Below are positions 5,147 through 12,761 of a DNA stretch of 64,000 nt, piece after piece. Position 1 is the first letter of the stretch, and each line of letters opens with the position of its first letter. Origin of the DNA: Patescibacteria group bacterium (GTDB taxonomy: Bacteria; Patescibacteriota; Patescibacteriia; Magasanikbacterales; GWA2-37-8); assembly GCA_041649475.1 (NCBI GenBank), contig JBAZNA010000001.1, forward strand, positions 392,612-456,611. Reading direction: 5' to 3'. Below the pieces are notes generated by a model. The model was given only the letters and a program-made list of their open reading frames with translations, had not been told where the DNA came from and did no database searches. Both the position numbers and the translations under genes were made by a program.

Positions 5147-6232
5147 ATGTCCAAAAATATATACATCCTATTGGTTCTAGCCGGTTCGTTGCTTTTGCTG
5201 GGCGCCAGCTGTATCCAAATAAACGGCAGCACGACCGGAGGCGGAGCCATGGGAATTTTCAGATCGGAAGACGGCGGAACGACGTGGGTGCAAAAGGCGG
5301 CTTTGCCGACCGCTAAGGGTGTACAAAGTATCGGCGGCGCCAAGGTCTATAGAATTTTTACGGATCCGAGCGACGCGAACGCTCTTTATATGGGCACCCG
5401 TGGCCAGGGTTTGTTTTACAGTTATGATAACGGCGATACCTGGACCGCGGTCTCCGCTATGGCCGGCAAATATATCTATGCTTTGGCCGTGGATCCGCGC
5501 GACAAGTGCACGATTTTTGTGAGTGATGGACCACATGTTTATAAAACCAATGATTGTTTGCGTACTTGGAGTTTGGCTTTTACCGAAGAGCGTCCGGATC
5601 AGCGGTTTACTTCTTTGATTGTTGATTATCAAAATTCCAGTATTGTTTATGGCGCAGAAATCGGCGGCGACATCCTGCGCAGTAAAGACGGCGGCTCAAG
5701 CTGGAGAATAGCCAAAAGATTTAATTTTGAAATTCGTTCTTTGGTTTTGGATCGGTTTACCGGCGGTCGTCTTTACGCGGCCGCGCTTACCAACGGTCTT
5801 TATAAGTCGGACGATGGCGGAGATAACTGGACGGACTTAAGCTCCGGGTTTAGCAGTTTTAGCGAAAGTAAAAATTTTTACAGAATGTATCCAAATCCCG
5901 CGCAAAAGGACAGTTTGTTTTGGGTTTCAAAGTATGGCATCCTGCGTTCTGATGACGCCGGCAAAACCTGGACTGATTTGAAACTGCTGACAGCGCCGGG
6001 CAGTGTGAATATTTACAGTTTGGCCGTAAATCCGAAGAATCAGTTGGAAATTTATTATACCGGCACGATTTTGAGCGACAGCAATGCCAATGTGCGATCC
6101 ACTCTGTATAAAACAACCGACGGCGGTAAAAATTGGGTGACTAAAAATTTGCCGACCAATACGATTCCGGTTGATATGTTGATTCAGCCGGCCAATGGCA
6201 AAATGCTCTTTGTCGGGTTTACTACTCCTTAA
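5147..6232 (+). CDS. BNR/Asp-box repeat beta-propeller protein (Ycf48/sialidase-like), probable lipoprotein
   Basis: Six S-x-D-x-G-x-T-W Asp-box repeats (SEDGGTTW, YDNGDTW, SKDGGSSW, SDDGGDNW, SDDAGKTW, TTDGGKNW). The N-terminal signal ends LLGASC, a possible lipobox. Confidence 0.7.
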   Translation: MSKNIYILLVLAGSLLLLGASCIQINGSTTGGGAMGIFRSEDGGTTWVQKAALPTAKGVQSIGGAKVYRIFTDPSDANALYMGTRGQGLFYSYDNGDTWTAVSAMAGKYIYALAVDPRDKCTIFVSDGPHVYKTNDCLRTWSLAFTEERPDQRFTSLIVDYQNSSIVYGAEIGGDILRSKDGGSSWRIAKRFNFEIRSLVLDRFTGGRLYAAALTNGLYKSDDGGDNWTDLSSGFSSFSESKNFYRMYPNPAQKDSLFWVSKYGILRSDDAGKTWTDLKLLTAPGSVNIYSLAVNPKNQLEIYYTGTILSDSNANVRSTLYKTTDGGKNWVTKNLPTNTIPVDMLIQPANGKMLFVGFTTP

Positions 6233-9557: not shown

Positions 9558-10299
9558 ACCCGTATATTTATTTGCCAATTGGAAAATGTATTTGGATTTT
9601 GACGAGAGCAATATTTTGGCCAACGCCCTGGCCAATGAATCAAAAAATTTTCCTAAAAATGTAAAGATGGCGATTTTCCCAAGCGCCCTGGCTTTGTATC
9701 CGGTCGGGCAGGTGCTCGCAGATGTTGGTATCGGGCTCGGCGCGCAAAACACCTACTGGGTTGATAAGGGCGGTTACACCGGTGAAATTTCAGCACAGAT
9801 GTATAAAGACGCGGGTTGCTCTTATGCGCTCGCCGGACATTCGGAAAGAAGACATCAGTTTCATGAATCAAACCATGAGACCCGAGAAAAACTGGAAGCG
9901 ATTTTAGCGGCCGGTATGACAGCGGTGTTATGCGTTGGGGAAACCGCGGCTGAAAGAGAGAAAGGCCAAACCGATGAAGCGGTTGAGGTGCAACTTCGGG
10001 CGGCTTTTGATAACTTAACCTGGCCGGAGGGCAAAAATTTGTTTATTGCCTATGAGCCGGTCTGGGCAATAGGCACGGGCAAAAATTGTGACGCGAAAGA
10101 AGCGCAAAGAATGCACGCGCTGATTAAAAAATTAGTTTCCGGATTGGTTACGGGCGTTAATCCGATAATTTTATACGGCGGCAGTGTGCGGCCGGAAAAT
10201 GTCGACGAGTATTTGGGCCAGCCGGATATTGCCGGCGTCCTGGTCGGCGGCGCCTCCGCCAAACTTGACAGCTGGCTGGGGATTGTCAACAAAGTTTAA
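9544..10299 (+). CDS. tpiA: Triosephosphate isomerase
   Basis: Motifs FANWKMY, AYEPVWAIGTGK and YGGSVRPENV. I preferred the ATG at 9544 (MSVSKPVYLFANWK) to the upstream 9499 start; it overlaps the M16 gene by 14 nt. Confidence 0.9.
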   Translation: MSVSKPVYLFANWKMYLDFDESNILANALANESKNFPKNVKMAIFPSALALYPVGQVLADVGIGLGAQNTYWVDKGGYTGEISAQMYKDAGCSYALAGHSERRHQFHESNHETREKLEAILAAGMTAVLCVGETAAEREKGQTDEAVEVQLRAAFDNLTWPEGKNLFIAYEPVWAIGTGKNCDAKEAQRMHALIKKLVSGLVTGVNPIILYGGSVRPENVDEYLGQPDIAGVLVGGASAKLDSWLGIVNKV

Positions 10300-10312
10300 A
10301 CACGCGAAGTAT

Positions 10313-11236
10313 ATGTTTTATTTAATCCCATTGGGGGTTTTTCTTATCGGCCTGGGGGTGGTTGTGTTTGTTGTCTTTAAAAAATTCGCGCAGGTTTCCA
10401 ATCTTGATCTGACTAATTTTCAGGAAGAAAAAATATATAAAAAGAAAAGAGAAATCATCAACAGCCGCATTGCCAAAACCAGCGACGTTATTAAAACGCA
10501 GACCATCAGGGTGCTGTCGCCGATTAAAAAAATTTGGGGATTATCACAATTAAAGTTCAGAATTTACGTCGGCAAGATTGAACGTTTGTTGCACCACGAG
10601 CAGGTGCTCAAAACCAAAGCGGAAATAGCCACGCCGCAAGCCAGCGAGGAGCAGGAACAAAAATTAAATCAGTTGATTAATGACGGCGAACAGAATCTGC
10701 AATTGGGAAATTTTGATCAGGCCGAGAATTGTTTTATCACCGCCATTAAAATTAATCCCAAATCAGCGCCGGCTTACCGTGGGTTGGGGGATACCTATCT
10801 GGCCAAAAAATCTTTGGAAGAGGCCAGGCAAACCTACAAATTTTTATTACATCTGGAACCGGATGATGACAGCGTTTTGGTTAAGTTGGCGGAAGTGGCC
10901 GAGAGCCAGGGGGATATTGAAGAAGCGATCGGCTATTATCAGCAGGCGGTTTTGCTAAATGACGCCTTTTCACCGCGGTTTTATCACCTGGCCGAACTGC
11001 TCCTCAAGGTTGATCAGCCCAAGGTGGCCAAAGAGGCGGCGCTTCAAGCGGTGGAACTTGAACCGCAGAACCCGAAGTACCTTGACTTATTGATAGAAAT
11101 TGCTATAATATGCGGCGACAAGGACCTCGCGCTTAAGGCCTTTAATGATCTGCGTCTGGTGAACCCGGATAATCAAAAATTGGACAGCTTTAAGGAGAGG
11201 ATCTCTAAGATTACCGCCGCCTTAGCTCAGCGGTAG
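10313..11236 (+). CDS. TPR-repeat protein with N-terminal transmembrane anchor
   Basis: The start at MFYLIPLGVFLIGLGVVVFVVF precedes a TM helix. Several 34-aa TPR-like repeats follow (AENCFITAIKINPKSAPAYRGLGDTY, AIGYYQQAVLLNDAFSP, ...). The 3' end overlaps tRNA-Thr by about 21 nt. Confidence 0.65.
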   Translation: MFYLIPLGVFLIGLGVVVFVVFKKFAQVSNLDLTNFQEEKIYKKKREIINSRIAKTSDVIKTQTIRVLSPIKKIWGLSQLKFRIYVGKIERLLHHEQVLKTKAEIATPQASEEQEQKLNQLINDGEQNLQLGNFDQAENCFITAIKINPKSAPAYRGLGDTYLAKKSLEEARQTYKFLLHLEPDDDSVLVKLAEVAESQGDIEEAIGYYQQAVLLNDAFSPRFYHLAELLLKVDQPKVAKEAALQAVELEPQNPKYLDLLIEIAIICGDKDLALKAFNDLRLVNPDNQKLDSFKERISKITAALAQR

Positions 11237-11287
11237 AGCAACACTTTTGTAAAGTGAAGGTCCTGGGTTCGAATCCCTGAGGCGGCT
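11216..11287 (+). tRNA. tRNA-Thr(UGU)
   Basis: Manual cloverleaf: acceptor GCCGCCT/AGGCGGC, D-arm GCTC-AGCGGTA-GAGC, anticodon loop TTTGTAA (UGU), T-loop TTCGAAT; one mismatch in each of the anticodon and T stems. Confidence 0.8.
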
Positions 11288-11324
11288 CTTGGTTAGTTAT
11301 TAATTTAATTAAAAATGTAATAAT

Positions 11325-11608
11325 GGGTGGATTTCTGAGCGGTCAAAAGAGACAGACTGTAGTAAAATGCAGCTCTTAAGAGAAATCTTAAGATGAACTC
11401 TCTGGGATAACGGTGAAAGCTAAAACAAGTGTCATGCTAATACCGTGGGAACCCCGAAAAGGTCGGGGAGCGCCGTAGAGACTAGATACCAGAGTGCCTA
11501 AAATCTTAAAAAGATTATGGCAAAGATATAGTCCATGCCTTAAGGAAACTTAGGGGAAAGTGAAATCTGTTGGCTCTGCCTTCGTAGGTTCGAATCCTAC
11601 TCCACCCA
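11325..11608 (+). tRNA. tRNA-Tyr(GUA) interrupted by a ~202-nt intron in the anticodon loop
   Basis: The exons reassemble to GGGTGGATTTCTGAGCGGTCAAAAGAGACAGACTGT|AAATCTGTTGGCTCTGCCTTCGTAGGTTCGAATCCTACTCCACCCA. This is near-identical in architecture to E. coli tRNA-Tyr (anticodon loop CUGUAAA, long variable arm, T-arm GTAGG-TTCGAAT-CCTAC). Confidence 0.8.
11361..11562 (+). ncRNA. Probable group I (IC3-like) self-splicing intron inside tRNA-Tyr
   Basis: A U precedes the 5' splice site and a G ends the intron, the group I rule. Internal GTAGAGACTAGA ... GATATAGTCC are candidate P7 strands; from memory they resemble the Azoarcus tRNA-Ile intron core. GAAA-type loops are present. Length about 202 nt. 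Confidence 0.6.
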
Positions 11609-11690
11609 CTGATATTTGACAATTAGCTTACCTATATGGTGTTAGTTTGCTAAGAGTATATTTTTATGTTAGGATATTTGATGTAAAAAT

Positions 11691-12287
11691 ATGTTGCAAT
11701 TATCAAAAGATAAATTAGCAAAACTCTATTTAGGTAAAGGTCAATCGGCAAAAGAAATTGCTGATGCTTATAAATGTTCCATTAATAAGATTAGATACTG
11801 GATGGAAAAATATGGAATCAAATCAAGATCTATAGGCGAAGCAATTTATCAAAAGAATAATCCTAATGGGGATCCTTTTAAGGTTAAGTATCCGGGTACA
11901 ATAGAAGAAGCAATTTTGTTTGGTTTTGGTCTTGGTTTGTACTGGGGGGAAGGAACAAAAGCTGACAAAGGTTCAGTGAGGTTGGGGAATACCGATCGTG
12001 ATTTGATAAAAAAATTTATTGCGTTTCTGGTTACAGTATTTGGTATTAAAAAGAAAGATTTAAAATTTAGTTTGCAATTATTTAACGATATTGACGAGAC
12101 AGAGGCGGTAGAACATTGGTCAAATTATTTGAAAATTGGAAAAGAGCAATTTTATAAATGTACTATAACAAAGTCGGTGAGAAAAGGTACATATGGCAAG
12201 AAAAGCGAGTATGGAGTTCTAACAGTGTATTATCATAATACGAAAATGAGGAATGCCTTAGTGGCAATATTACAAAAAGAAAAATAG
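11691..12287 (+). CDS. AT-rich ORF with N-terminal HTH and a LAGLIDADG-like motif (candidate free-standing homing endonuclease)
   Basis: GFGLGLYWGEGTK resembles single-motif LAGLIDADG signatures (GL..GEG). The N-terminal segment AKEIADAYKCSINKIRYWMEKYGI looks like an HTH. The ORF lies between two intron-bearing tRNAs and is visibly more AT-rich than its neighbours. Confidence 0.4.
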   Translation: MLQLSKDKLAKLYLGKGQSAKEIADAYKCSINKIRYWMEKYGIKSRSIGEAIYQKNNPNGDPFKVKYPGTIEEAILFGFGLGLYWGEGTKADKGSVRLGNTDRDLIKKFIAFLVTVFGIKKKDLKFSLQLFNDIDETEAVEHWSNYLKIGKEQFYKCTITKSVRKGTYGKKSEYGVLTVYYHNTKMRNALVAILQKEK

Positions 12288-12292
12288 ATAAC

Positions 12293-12559
12293 GCCGTTGT
12301 AGCTCAGTTGGTAGAGCATTTCCATGGTGGTTCGCAAAAACCCCGCCCACTGGCAAGGAAACTTGTCGGTGAATCCCGAATAACGGTTAAAGGCCAGAAA
12401 TGGTTAAGACCGTGGCGAATAAAATCGCCCGAACGACTGACAAGGGGAGTTAAATCCCGACTAAGTCGGGACAAGCTCAAGATACAGTCTAGCCCTCTAA
12501 TAACAAAATAGAGGTGTAAGCGAAGGAAAAGGTCTCGGGTTCAAATCCCGACAACGGCT
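12293..12559 (+). tRNA. tRNA-Thr(GGU) interrupted by a ~194-nt intervening sequence after anticodon position 36
   Basis: Acceptor GCCGTTG/CAACGGC, D-arm GCTCAGTTGGTAGAGC (identical to E. coli thrT), anticodon stem TTTCC/GGAAA, T-arm TCGGG-TTCAAAT-CCCGA. With U-at-minus-1/G-at-end splice sites the mature loop is AUGGUAA, anticodon GGU. Confidence 0.6.
12329..12522 (+). ncRNA. Intervening sequence in tRNA-Thr(GGU), possible group I intron
   Basis: Bounded by the exon halves of a complete tRNA. Contains GAAA/GNRA-like loops and a CCCGACTAAGTCGGG hairpin. Core motifs are less clear than in the Tyr intron. Confidence 0.45.
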
Positions 12560-12605
12560 CGGATAAACATAAGGGCGCAAAGCCGCGCCGGAAAAATTTA
12601 ATAAT

Positions 12606-12761
12606 ATGTCGCAAGATAATCTTGTAAAAATGGAGTGCAAGGAGTGCAAACATACAAATTATTTTACCAGCAAAAACAAGAAGACCTTGAAGAACCGCTT
12701 GGAGTTGGAAAAGTTTTGTAAATTTTGCCGGAAACACACCGTGCACAAGGAAACAAAATAG
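12606..12761 (+). CDS. rpmG: Ribosomal protein L33 (51 aa; below the ORF-track length cutoff)
   Basis: Translation [51 protein letters not shown] has the two CxxC zinc-ribbon pairs and the length of L33. Confidence 0.85.

Follow-up and report, generated by a model that had tools for sequence, protein, structure and literature searches.

A compact group I intron in a Patescibacteria tRNA-Thr(GGU) gene, and a candidate free-standing homing endonuclease gene beside it

In 3 of 95 complete Patescibacteria genomes the tRNA-Thr(GGU) gene has been found to be interrupted between positions 36 and 37 by what were called 'divergent group I introns' (Nakagawa et al. 2026, mSystems, PMC13011429). The element described here belongs to that family. 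It is a 194-nt insert (12329-12522) in the tRNA-Thr(GGU) gene at 12293-12559 of a 64,000-nt stretch of a Patescibacteria group bacterium genome (contig JBAZNA010000001.1, positions 392,612 to 456,611; the whole stretch is referred to as the window), where it is accompanied by an intron-bearing tRNA-Tyr gene and an open reading frame (ORF), ORF198. According to the 2026 survey, the Rfam model RF00028 misses the Thr introns, ARAGORN calls two of the three as tRNA-Arg(GCG) with an intron at 34/35, and the model of tFind (Williams 2020, bioRxiv 10.1101/2020.01.27.920355) finds them, while in its tree the Thr introns group with IA-classified introns rather than with IC introns (PMC13011429). Endonuclease genes were searched for only inside the introns in that survey, and limited mobility was inferred (PMC13011429); Williams 2020 does not deal specifically with the Thr intron or with endonucleases.

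The intron in the window resembles those of the survey in host tRNA, anticodon, 36/37 site, size class (184-894 nt in PMC13011429), phylum and the way in which tools fail on it, whereas it differs in that it comes from another genome, that its fold is supported by covariation and that its family is found in at least ~80 species representatives. The group I introns of Azoarcus tRNA-Ile(CAU) and cyanobacterial tRNA-Leu(UAA) are likewise small bacterial tRNA introns, but with a different host tRNA and position, and compared with these the Thr intron is too divergent for RF00028. On its own, the intron extends the 2026 description only a little. What is added here is the breadth of the family, a covariation-supported fold, the use of helix P9.0 to define the 3' splice site, and an exactly matching empty site, and it is the adjacent ORF198 that is worth following up.

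All parts of a tRNA-Thr(GGU) are present at 12293-12559, but interrupted by 194 nt, and we consider it very probable (roughly 0.9) that 12329-12522 is a compact group I intron which splits the gene between U36 and A37. The gene is composed as follows:

12293-12328, + strand: 5' exon of tRNA-Thr(GGU), tRNA positions 1-36, ending in G34 G35 U36; equals the 5' part of the uninterrupted genes in two relatives (L206, L208).
12329-12522, + strand: very probable group I intron, 194 nt, inserted at 36/37; absent from the relatives' otherwise identical genes, with covarying P1-P9 and 199 bits with its own covariance model.
12523-12559, + strand: 3' exon of tRNA-Thr(GGU), positions 37-73 (A37 A38 ... 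U73), CCA not encoded; recognised from the spliced cloverleaf and the relatives' genes.

The acceptor stem (GCCGTTG/CAACGGC) with discriminator T12559, the D-arm (GCTC-AGTTGGTA-GAGC), the anticodon stem (TTTCC at 12319-12323 with GGAAA at 12525-12529) and the T-arm (TCGGG-TTCAAAT-CCCGA) are as described in the original prediction, which had been made from the sequence alone, and so is their separation by 194 nt. G1-C72 and C2-G71 are both seen in the split gene; these pairs are identity elements of the E. coli threonyl-tRNA synthetase (ThrRS). The GCCG start and U73 are also found in the tRNA-Thr(UGU) of the window. When 12328 is joined to 12523 (expected junction ...TCCATGGT/AAGGAAA..., a slash marking the splice site), ARAGORN returns a tRNA-Thr(ggt) with a canonical cloverleaf and the loop AUGGUAA. 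The spliced sequence aligns without gaps with E. coli thrT (the annotated K-12 gene) and with intron-less Patescibacteria genes, its D-arm being identical to that of thrT as had been claimed, and a BLAST search of it against E. coli genomes returned three plasmid tRNA-Thr genes only (77%). Plain ARAGORN and Rfam tRNA searches of the window left the split gene unreported. The unspliced stretch has a minimum free energy (MFE) z-score of -6.25, and none of 200 shuffles folds equally well.

The boundaries of the insert were located by comparison with relatives, which were anchored on the neighbouring L33 gene rpmG (12606-12761). This gave 21 loci (L33 75-92% identical), of which the nearest carry the labels Magasanikbacteria and Buchananbacteria, and most of which share the synteny TIM, TPR protein, tRNAs, rpmG, tRNA-Trp. 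Throughout these 21 loci the tRNA-Tyr and tRNA-Thr(GGU) genes are uninterrupted, and neither ORF198 nor the Thr intron was found in any of them. In two (L206, L208) the tRNA-Thr(GGU) gene is identical at 74/74 positions to the window exons joined at 12328/12523. Such a comparison with related genomes had been proposed as a check on the anticodon, and it confirms GGU as well as insertion after position 36, in agreement with the covariation and the family model described below. Since the junction bases differ (T/G at the 5' side, G/A at the 3' side), the insert cannot slide, and it therefore comprises exactly 12329-12522, with GGU as the anticodon. Judging from these genomes, the Thr intron is a gain in the window's lineage, whose nearest relatives have the identical gene without it.

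The secondary structure was derived from an alignment of 55 family members that are mutually less than 80% identical, in which helices were assigned by hand from the MFE helices of the window and from conserved strings, and pairs were then counted on the alignment. The following elements were assigned:

12326-12347, + strand: P1 hairpin, GGU/GG (12326-12330) with CCGCC (12343-12347); U.G, G-C and G-C invariant in 55/55, the two intron-side pairs covarying.
12348-12371, + strand: P2 hairpin, 10 bp, GAAA loop; compensatory changes in 9/10 pairs.
12375-12377, + strand: P3 5' strand CCC, pairing with GGG 12444-12446, pseudoknot with P7; 98.8% paired.
12383-12413, + strand: P4 (12383-12388/12408-12413) and P5 (12392-12396/12401-12405, GAAA loop), with A-rich J4/5 and J5/4; P4 100% paired, 4/5 pairs of P5 compensatory.
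12414-12429, + strand: P6 hairpin; 95.6% paired, 4/5 pairs compensatory.
12435-12439, + strand: P7 5' strand GACUG, pairing with CAGUC 12485-12489; invariant in 55/55, matching the Rfam consensus GACUA/UAGUC of the Tyr intron alignment.
12444-12446, + strand: P3 3' strand GGG, pairing with CCC 12375-12377.
12447-12478, + strand: P8, outer helix 12447-12451/12474-12478 and distal hairpin 12455-12461/12465-12471; 5/5 outer pairs compensatory, distal length variable.
12479-12489, + strand: J8/7 (AAGAUA) and P7 3' strand (CAGUC), core motif AAGAUACAGUC; shared with the Tyr intron and present in most family members.
12492-12521, + strand: P9.0 (G12492-C12521, C12493-G12520) around the P9 hairpin (12494-12499/12509-12514); P9.0 98.2% paired with 17 + 14 double changes, 6/6 pairs of P9 compensatory.
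12522, + strand: terminal intron G (omega-G), followed by the 3' splice site; G-terminated in at least ~80 family members, the two preceding bases fixed by P9.0.

Across the 55 members 92.7% of cells are paired, compared to 31-44% when the partners are slid by 1-3 columns, and compensatory changes are found in 42 of the 59 pairs, none of 500 shuffles matching any of these measures. An independent RNAalifold run recovered P1, P2, P4-P9 and the anticodon stem. The helix order, P1-P2-P3-P4-P5-P6-P7-P3'-P8-P7'-P9.0-P9, is that of a group I core, including the P3/P7 pseudoknot, and P3 changes from CCC/GGG to CUC/GAG, CCU/AGG or UCC/GGA in relatives. P7 (GACUG/CAGUC) and J8/7 (AAGAUA) show no variation and are similar to the Rfam consensus (GACUA/UAGUC and AAGAUAUAGUC). 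The pair G12435-C12489 corresponds in the alignment to the conserved G-C pair of the consensus P7, and may be the guanosine-binding pair.

In P1 the anticodon serves as the exon strand (G34, G35 and U36 with C12347, C12346 and G12345), and the 5' splice site lies directly after U12328, whose pair with G12345 is invariant in 55/55. At the other end, covariation of P9.0 (12492-12493 with 12520-12521) fixes G12522 as the terminal G. The convention on which the original prediction relied (U at -1, G at the end of the intron, mature loop AUGGUAA) thus holds, and two elements that it had singled out have a place in the fold: the CCCGACTAAGTCGGG hairpin corresponds to distal P8 (12456-12470), and the GTCTAG motif (12486-12491) is the P7 3' strand plus J7/9.

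Following this structure, the precursor would fold such that the anticodon G34-G35-U36 pairs with an internal guide GCC (12345-12347), with U36 opposite G12345 (P1), while the P3-P9 and P4-P6 domains would build the catalytic core around P7. Free guanosine would then attack after U12328, as in the standard group I pathway, after which P9.0 would set the terminal G12522 in the guanosine site and exon ligation would give ...CCAUGGU-AAGGAAA..., with the normal anticodon loop AUGGUAA. The insert would almost certainly self-splice; guanosine-dependent catalysis, in vitro as well as in vivo, is what we infer from sequence only.

Further evidence on the ribozyme class comes from the intron in the tRNA-Tyr(GUA) gene (11325-11609), 0.7 kb upstream of the Thr gene. 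This intron (11361-11562) scores 55.1 bits with RF00028, which puts it at 11350-11555 and thus offset from its true boundaries. Comparison with the uninterrupted tRNA-Tyr of L204 and L205 places it after U35 (CUGU/...G/AAAUCUG), i.e. at 35/36, a site that was highlighted as unusual in the survey (PMC13011429). A covariance model (R1) was built from the 55-member alignment, with E-values that are roughly calibrated. R1 scores the Thr intron of the window at 199 bits, and its match to the Tyr intron detected by RF00028 spans the whole model, with 26.5 bits (E ~1.3e-7 by the rough calibration). In the core, CGAACGACUGACAAGGG and AAGAUACAGUC have counterparts in the Rfam consensus, and AGATAYAGTC occurs twice in the 64 kb, once in each of the two introns, versus 0.02 occurrences expected. 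The two introns have the tRNA cluster, the architecture and core motifs (GACU..., AAGAUAYAGUC) in common, whereas they differ in site (35/36 versus 36/37) and in detection by Rfam, which finds the Tyr intron, and share ~61% global identity. Because one relative (L123) has the Thr intron together with an uninterrupted Tyr gene, the Tyr intron is a separate insertion; the R1 match and the shared core motif argue for a single ribozyme class. The Tyr and Thr introns are thus distinct insertions of one ribozyme class. This agrees with the earlier claim that the Thr insert is a second, distinct intron and no local duplication of the Tyr intron, to which it adds their common class.

To assess how widespread the family is, one genome per species was searched for NTGGT with a Thr-type D-arm before it and a non-A base after it (at least 120 matches). 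A homologous insert of 176-266 nt at the identical tRNA position was found at no fewer than ~80 loci, always after U36 and always G-terminated before A37 A38. Among the matches listed, the carriers are nearly all Patescibacteria from many lineages (including Saccharibacteria, Kaiser-, Wolfe-, Moran-, Magasanik-, Uhr-, Azam- and Peregrinibacteria), and the closest to the window intron is that of L077, with 75% identity. A family member of 181-182 nt is also present in Niastella populi, a cultured member of the Bacteroidota (L057, NZ_LWBP01000002.1, ~5180-5450, minus strand), which points either to spread beyond Patescibacteria or to a contaminating contig.

The same scan returned a second family of inserts, which begin with TTTCGGTCC and end in ...GGAA before AATCC (L001, L014, L031, L035, L039, L066, L068, L080); the hosts are Patescibacteria and metagenome-assembled genomes (MAGs) labelled Bdellovibrionales or Gammaproteobacteria. 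As ARAGORN calls three of them (L031, L066, L068) tRNA-Phe(GAA) with an intron at 33/34, these inserts are not Thr introns and were set aside. Several small-genome contigs with Patescibacteria-type introns and ORFs (L073, L095, L100 and others) are labelled 'uncultured Gammaproteobacteria' or 'Bdellovibrionales', and are probably taxonomically mislabelled Patescibacteria MAGs. In another Patescibacteria genome (L050), an RF00028-positive group I intron (1907-2126, 60.1 bits) lies ~2.5 kb upstream of the Thr(GGU) intron.

Between the Tyr and Thr(GGU) genes of the window lies the ORF mentioned above:

11691-12287, + strand: ORF198, N-terminal helix-turn-helix (HTH) and GLGLYWGEGTK (LAGLIDADG-like) domain, candidate free-standing homing endonuclease, ending 5 nt before the tRNA.

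The motif GLGLYWGEG(T/N)K is invariant in the domain of this ORF family, and Pfam LAGLIDADG_3 matches ORF198 below threshold (E 0.0055). With a confident AlphaFold2 (AF2) model of ORF198 (predicted local distance difference test, pLDDT, 85.6), a fold search of the PDB gave nothing significant, and one of BFVD gave weak matches, several of which are named LAGLIDADG or endonuclease. PHROG matches named 'HNH endonuclease' cover the N-terminal HTH only and were discarded as evidence for a catalytic domain. The original prediction had seen in this cluster the enterobacterial order thrU-tyrU-glyT-thrT, with the ORF in the place of glyT. Although the enterobacterial order was verified in E. coli, the order in the nearest relatives is Thr(UGU)-Tyr-Thr(GGU)-rpmG with a Tyr/Thr(GGU) spacer of a few to ~70 nt, and these relatives have neither glyT nor the ORF between Tyr and Thr(GGU). 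Replacement of glyT was therefore rejected, and the ORF is instead an inserted AT-rich gene (GC 0.31-0.34 in its region versus ~0.45 in the flanks). Present or absent at a fixed site, AT-rich, and known from decayed copies (frameshifted or partial in L018, L051, L008 and L053), ORF198 behaves as a selfish insertion.

A metagenome scan gave at least 550 relatives of ORF198 (family loci include L002, L024, L100, L112 and L123-L202). In the best 80 of these, tRNA-Thr(GGU) follows right after the ORF in every locus with enough flank; 48 of the 80 have the intron, 21 do not, and 11 were assigned to neither state. In 52/69 loci the ORF even runs into the tRNA, its stop codon (TAG) being U8-A9-G10 of the tRNA. 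Starting from the intron, a co-oriented homologue of ORF198, in some cases frameshifted or partial, ends shortly before the tRNA in ~24 of the 72 intron-bearing loci with enough upstream sequence. Distant paralogues (25-33% identity; L056, L110, L027, L066, L077) are placed in the same register directly beside genes for Thr(UGU), Trp(CCA), Val(GAC) and Pro(UGG), and the L077 paralogue ends 6 nt before an intron-bearing tRNA-Tyr. This suggests a nuclease-like family that diversified across tRNA targets; its distribution is linked to the 5' ends of tRNA genes and not strictly to introns. Another overlap of an ORF with a tRNA 5' end is seen in the window, where the open frame of the TPR protein (10184-11236) overlaps tRNA-Thr(UGU) (11216-11288) by ~20 nt, which may merely reflect a mechanical ORF call.

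Several observations weigh against the interpretation of 12329-12522 as a group I intron that is spliced from a functional tRNA. RF00028 does not match the insert (12200-12650) even at E<=10, a permissive Rfam search giving a truncated tRNA call and noise only, and at its gathering score the model detects the Thr intron in 0/18 relatives; cmsearch with RF00028, which had been suggested as a check, is therefore of little use here, this being a known false negative of the model (PMC13011429). Group I membership is based on hand-assigned helices and on our own covariance model with rough E-values, P3 has just 3 bp, and P4 and P7 are invariant (P4 nearly so in one count), so that neither yields covariation information. 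The splicing tests of the survey covered Asn and Asp introns only (PMC13011429), and a second intact Thr(GGU) gene could lie outside the 64 kb seen. It could be argued that the gene is a dead pseudogene from which the insert is never removed, another Thr tRNA supplying the function: splicing of the insert is a prediction, the tRNA-Thr(UGU) 1 kb upstream could in principle read more codons, and the genome is viewed through 64 kb. Against this, the exons match functional-looking genes in relatives at 100% of positions, the syntenic position in the sampled relatives holds a Thr(GGU) gene, and purifying selection maintains a ribozyme-like fold in the insert (the 42/59 compensatory pairs were counted across 55 species), which makes a dead gene highly improbable. 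Even less can be said for a tRNA-Arg(GCG) with an intron at 34/35 (12327-12520). Intron-aware ARAGORN does call Arg(gcg) i(35,194) on the unspliced window, with the insert shifted by 2 nt, and G12520 could equally act as the terminal G. A different splice site and anticodon were what the original prediction had named as its refutation, and ARAGORN indeed gives them, 2 nt away, but the empty sites expose this as a boundary artefact: the intron-less orthologues read ...CCATGGTAAGGAAA..., 74/74 identical to the 12328/12523 join, which refutes Arg(GCG). Shifted boundaries would moreover make the orthologues Arg(GCG), His(GUG), Leu(GAG) or Pro(GGG) by species, and would put the 5' splice site after a G and not after the invariant U that is paired with G. 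The amino acid that intron-aware ARAGORN assigns to the orthologues (Arg, His, Leu, Pro or Thr) depends on two variable bases in front of the terminal G; these bases belong to the intron, covary with 12492-12493 as P9.0 and are not anticodon bases. The same artefact has been described before (PMC13011429), and we give the Arg reading practically no credence.

It could also be that the insert is a group I-like intron without autonomous catalysis and that ORF198 is not a nuclease but its helper, i.e. a maturase of the LAGLIDADG type. The very short P3, the small core and the failure of Rfam to find the intron would fit this, as would a LAGLIDADG-like ORF 5 nt upstream of the tRNA, and LAGLIDADG maturases are known for other group I introns. 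The distribution of ORF198 is, however, not that of a dedicated maturase: 48/72 intron-bearing loci (about two thirds) are without such an ORF beside the tRNA, 21/69 ORF-linked Thr(GGU) genes are without the intron, and the paralogues adjoin Thr(UGU), Trp, Val and Pro genes that have no intron. A maturase role is therefore highly improbable as well, and a group I intron that splits tRNA-Thr(GGU) at 36/37 remains the preferred reading.

The distribution of ORF198 bears on the mobility of both elements. The Thr intron is found in 48/69 genes beside the ORF, versus 0 of ~9 distinct nearest-relative lineages and 3/95 complete genomes (PMC13011429), in samples that are not phylogenetically independent. 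Four states of the same synteny are encountered: L204-L211 have none of the elements, L123 and L174 have the ORF and the Thr intron but an uninterrupted Tyr gene, L077 has both introns while no ORF separates Tyr from Thr, and the window has the ORF along with both introns. As a pattern of presence and absence, this mosaic fits independently mobile elements, and the co-occurrence of ORF198 with the intron suggests a candidate free-standing homing endonuclease. A further candidate for a free-standing nuclease is seen at the same cluster in close relatives, where small GIY-YIG ORFs of 79-86 amino acids lie beside rpmG (L208 2303-2563, L216 2306-2551, L224 1737-1976); L216 has this ORF and L215 does not, the two being otherwise alike.

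Collaborative (or trans) homing, in which an intron without an ORF spreads with the help of a neighbouring nuclease gene, is known from phage, i.e. F-CphI with cyanophage psbA and T4 mobE with the nrdB intron (PMC6083498, PMC2790892, review PMC3984707). The locus in the window is like these systems in that an ORF-less group I intron adjoins, rather than encloses, a candidate endonuclease gene, that both are absent from close relatives and that they co-occur far above the background rate. It is unlike them in that the phage systems are located in protein-coding genes and have assayed nucleases, whereas ORF198 would have a cellular tRNA gene as its target and is a putative nuclease known from sequence, and in that its family is also found beside intron-less tRNA genes. 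Tentatively, and at somewhat less than even odds, the ORF198 family may consist of undescribed free-standing LAGLIDADG-like homing endonucleases that target tRNA 5' edges, often stopping at U8-A9-G10; in their Thr(GGU) branch, co-conversion would carry along the ORF-less intron that lies 36 bp downstream. Compared with a view to resistant target sites, the anticodon stems differ between intron-bearing and intron-less ORF-linked genes (ACUCC/GGAGU in 32 of the 48 intron-bearing ones), a difference that is confounded by lineage.

For annotation, the consequence is that standard tools either miss an essential-looking tRNA gene or assign it to Arg, His, Leu or Pro by two variable intron bases, and such miscalls distort the tRNA complements and completeness estimates of Patescibacteria. 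Alignment combined with structure (P1-P9, P9.0) gives a firm rule for the splice sites. The link to the ORF offers a testable route for the spread of ORF-less tRNA introns in reduced genomes, for which the cultured Niastella populi (L057) is a possible experimental handle. If the ORF198 family does consist of such homing endonucleases, the Thr intron, the ORF and the Tyr intron would be gained and lost independently of one another in a hotspot formed by the Thr(UGU)-Tyr-Thr(GGU)-rpmG cluster, and the tRNA introns of Patescibacteria would, contrary to the 2026 survey, not be immobile for want of intron-encoded endonucleases, but would ride on neighbouring nuclease genes.

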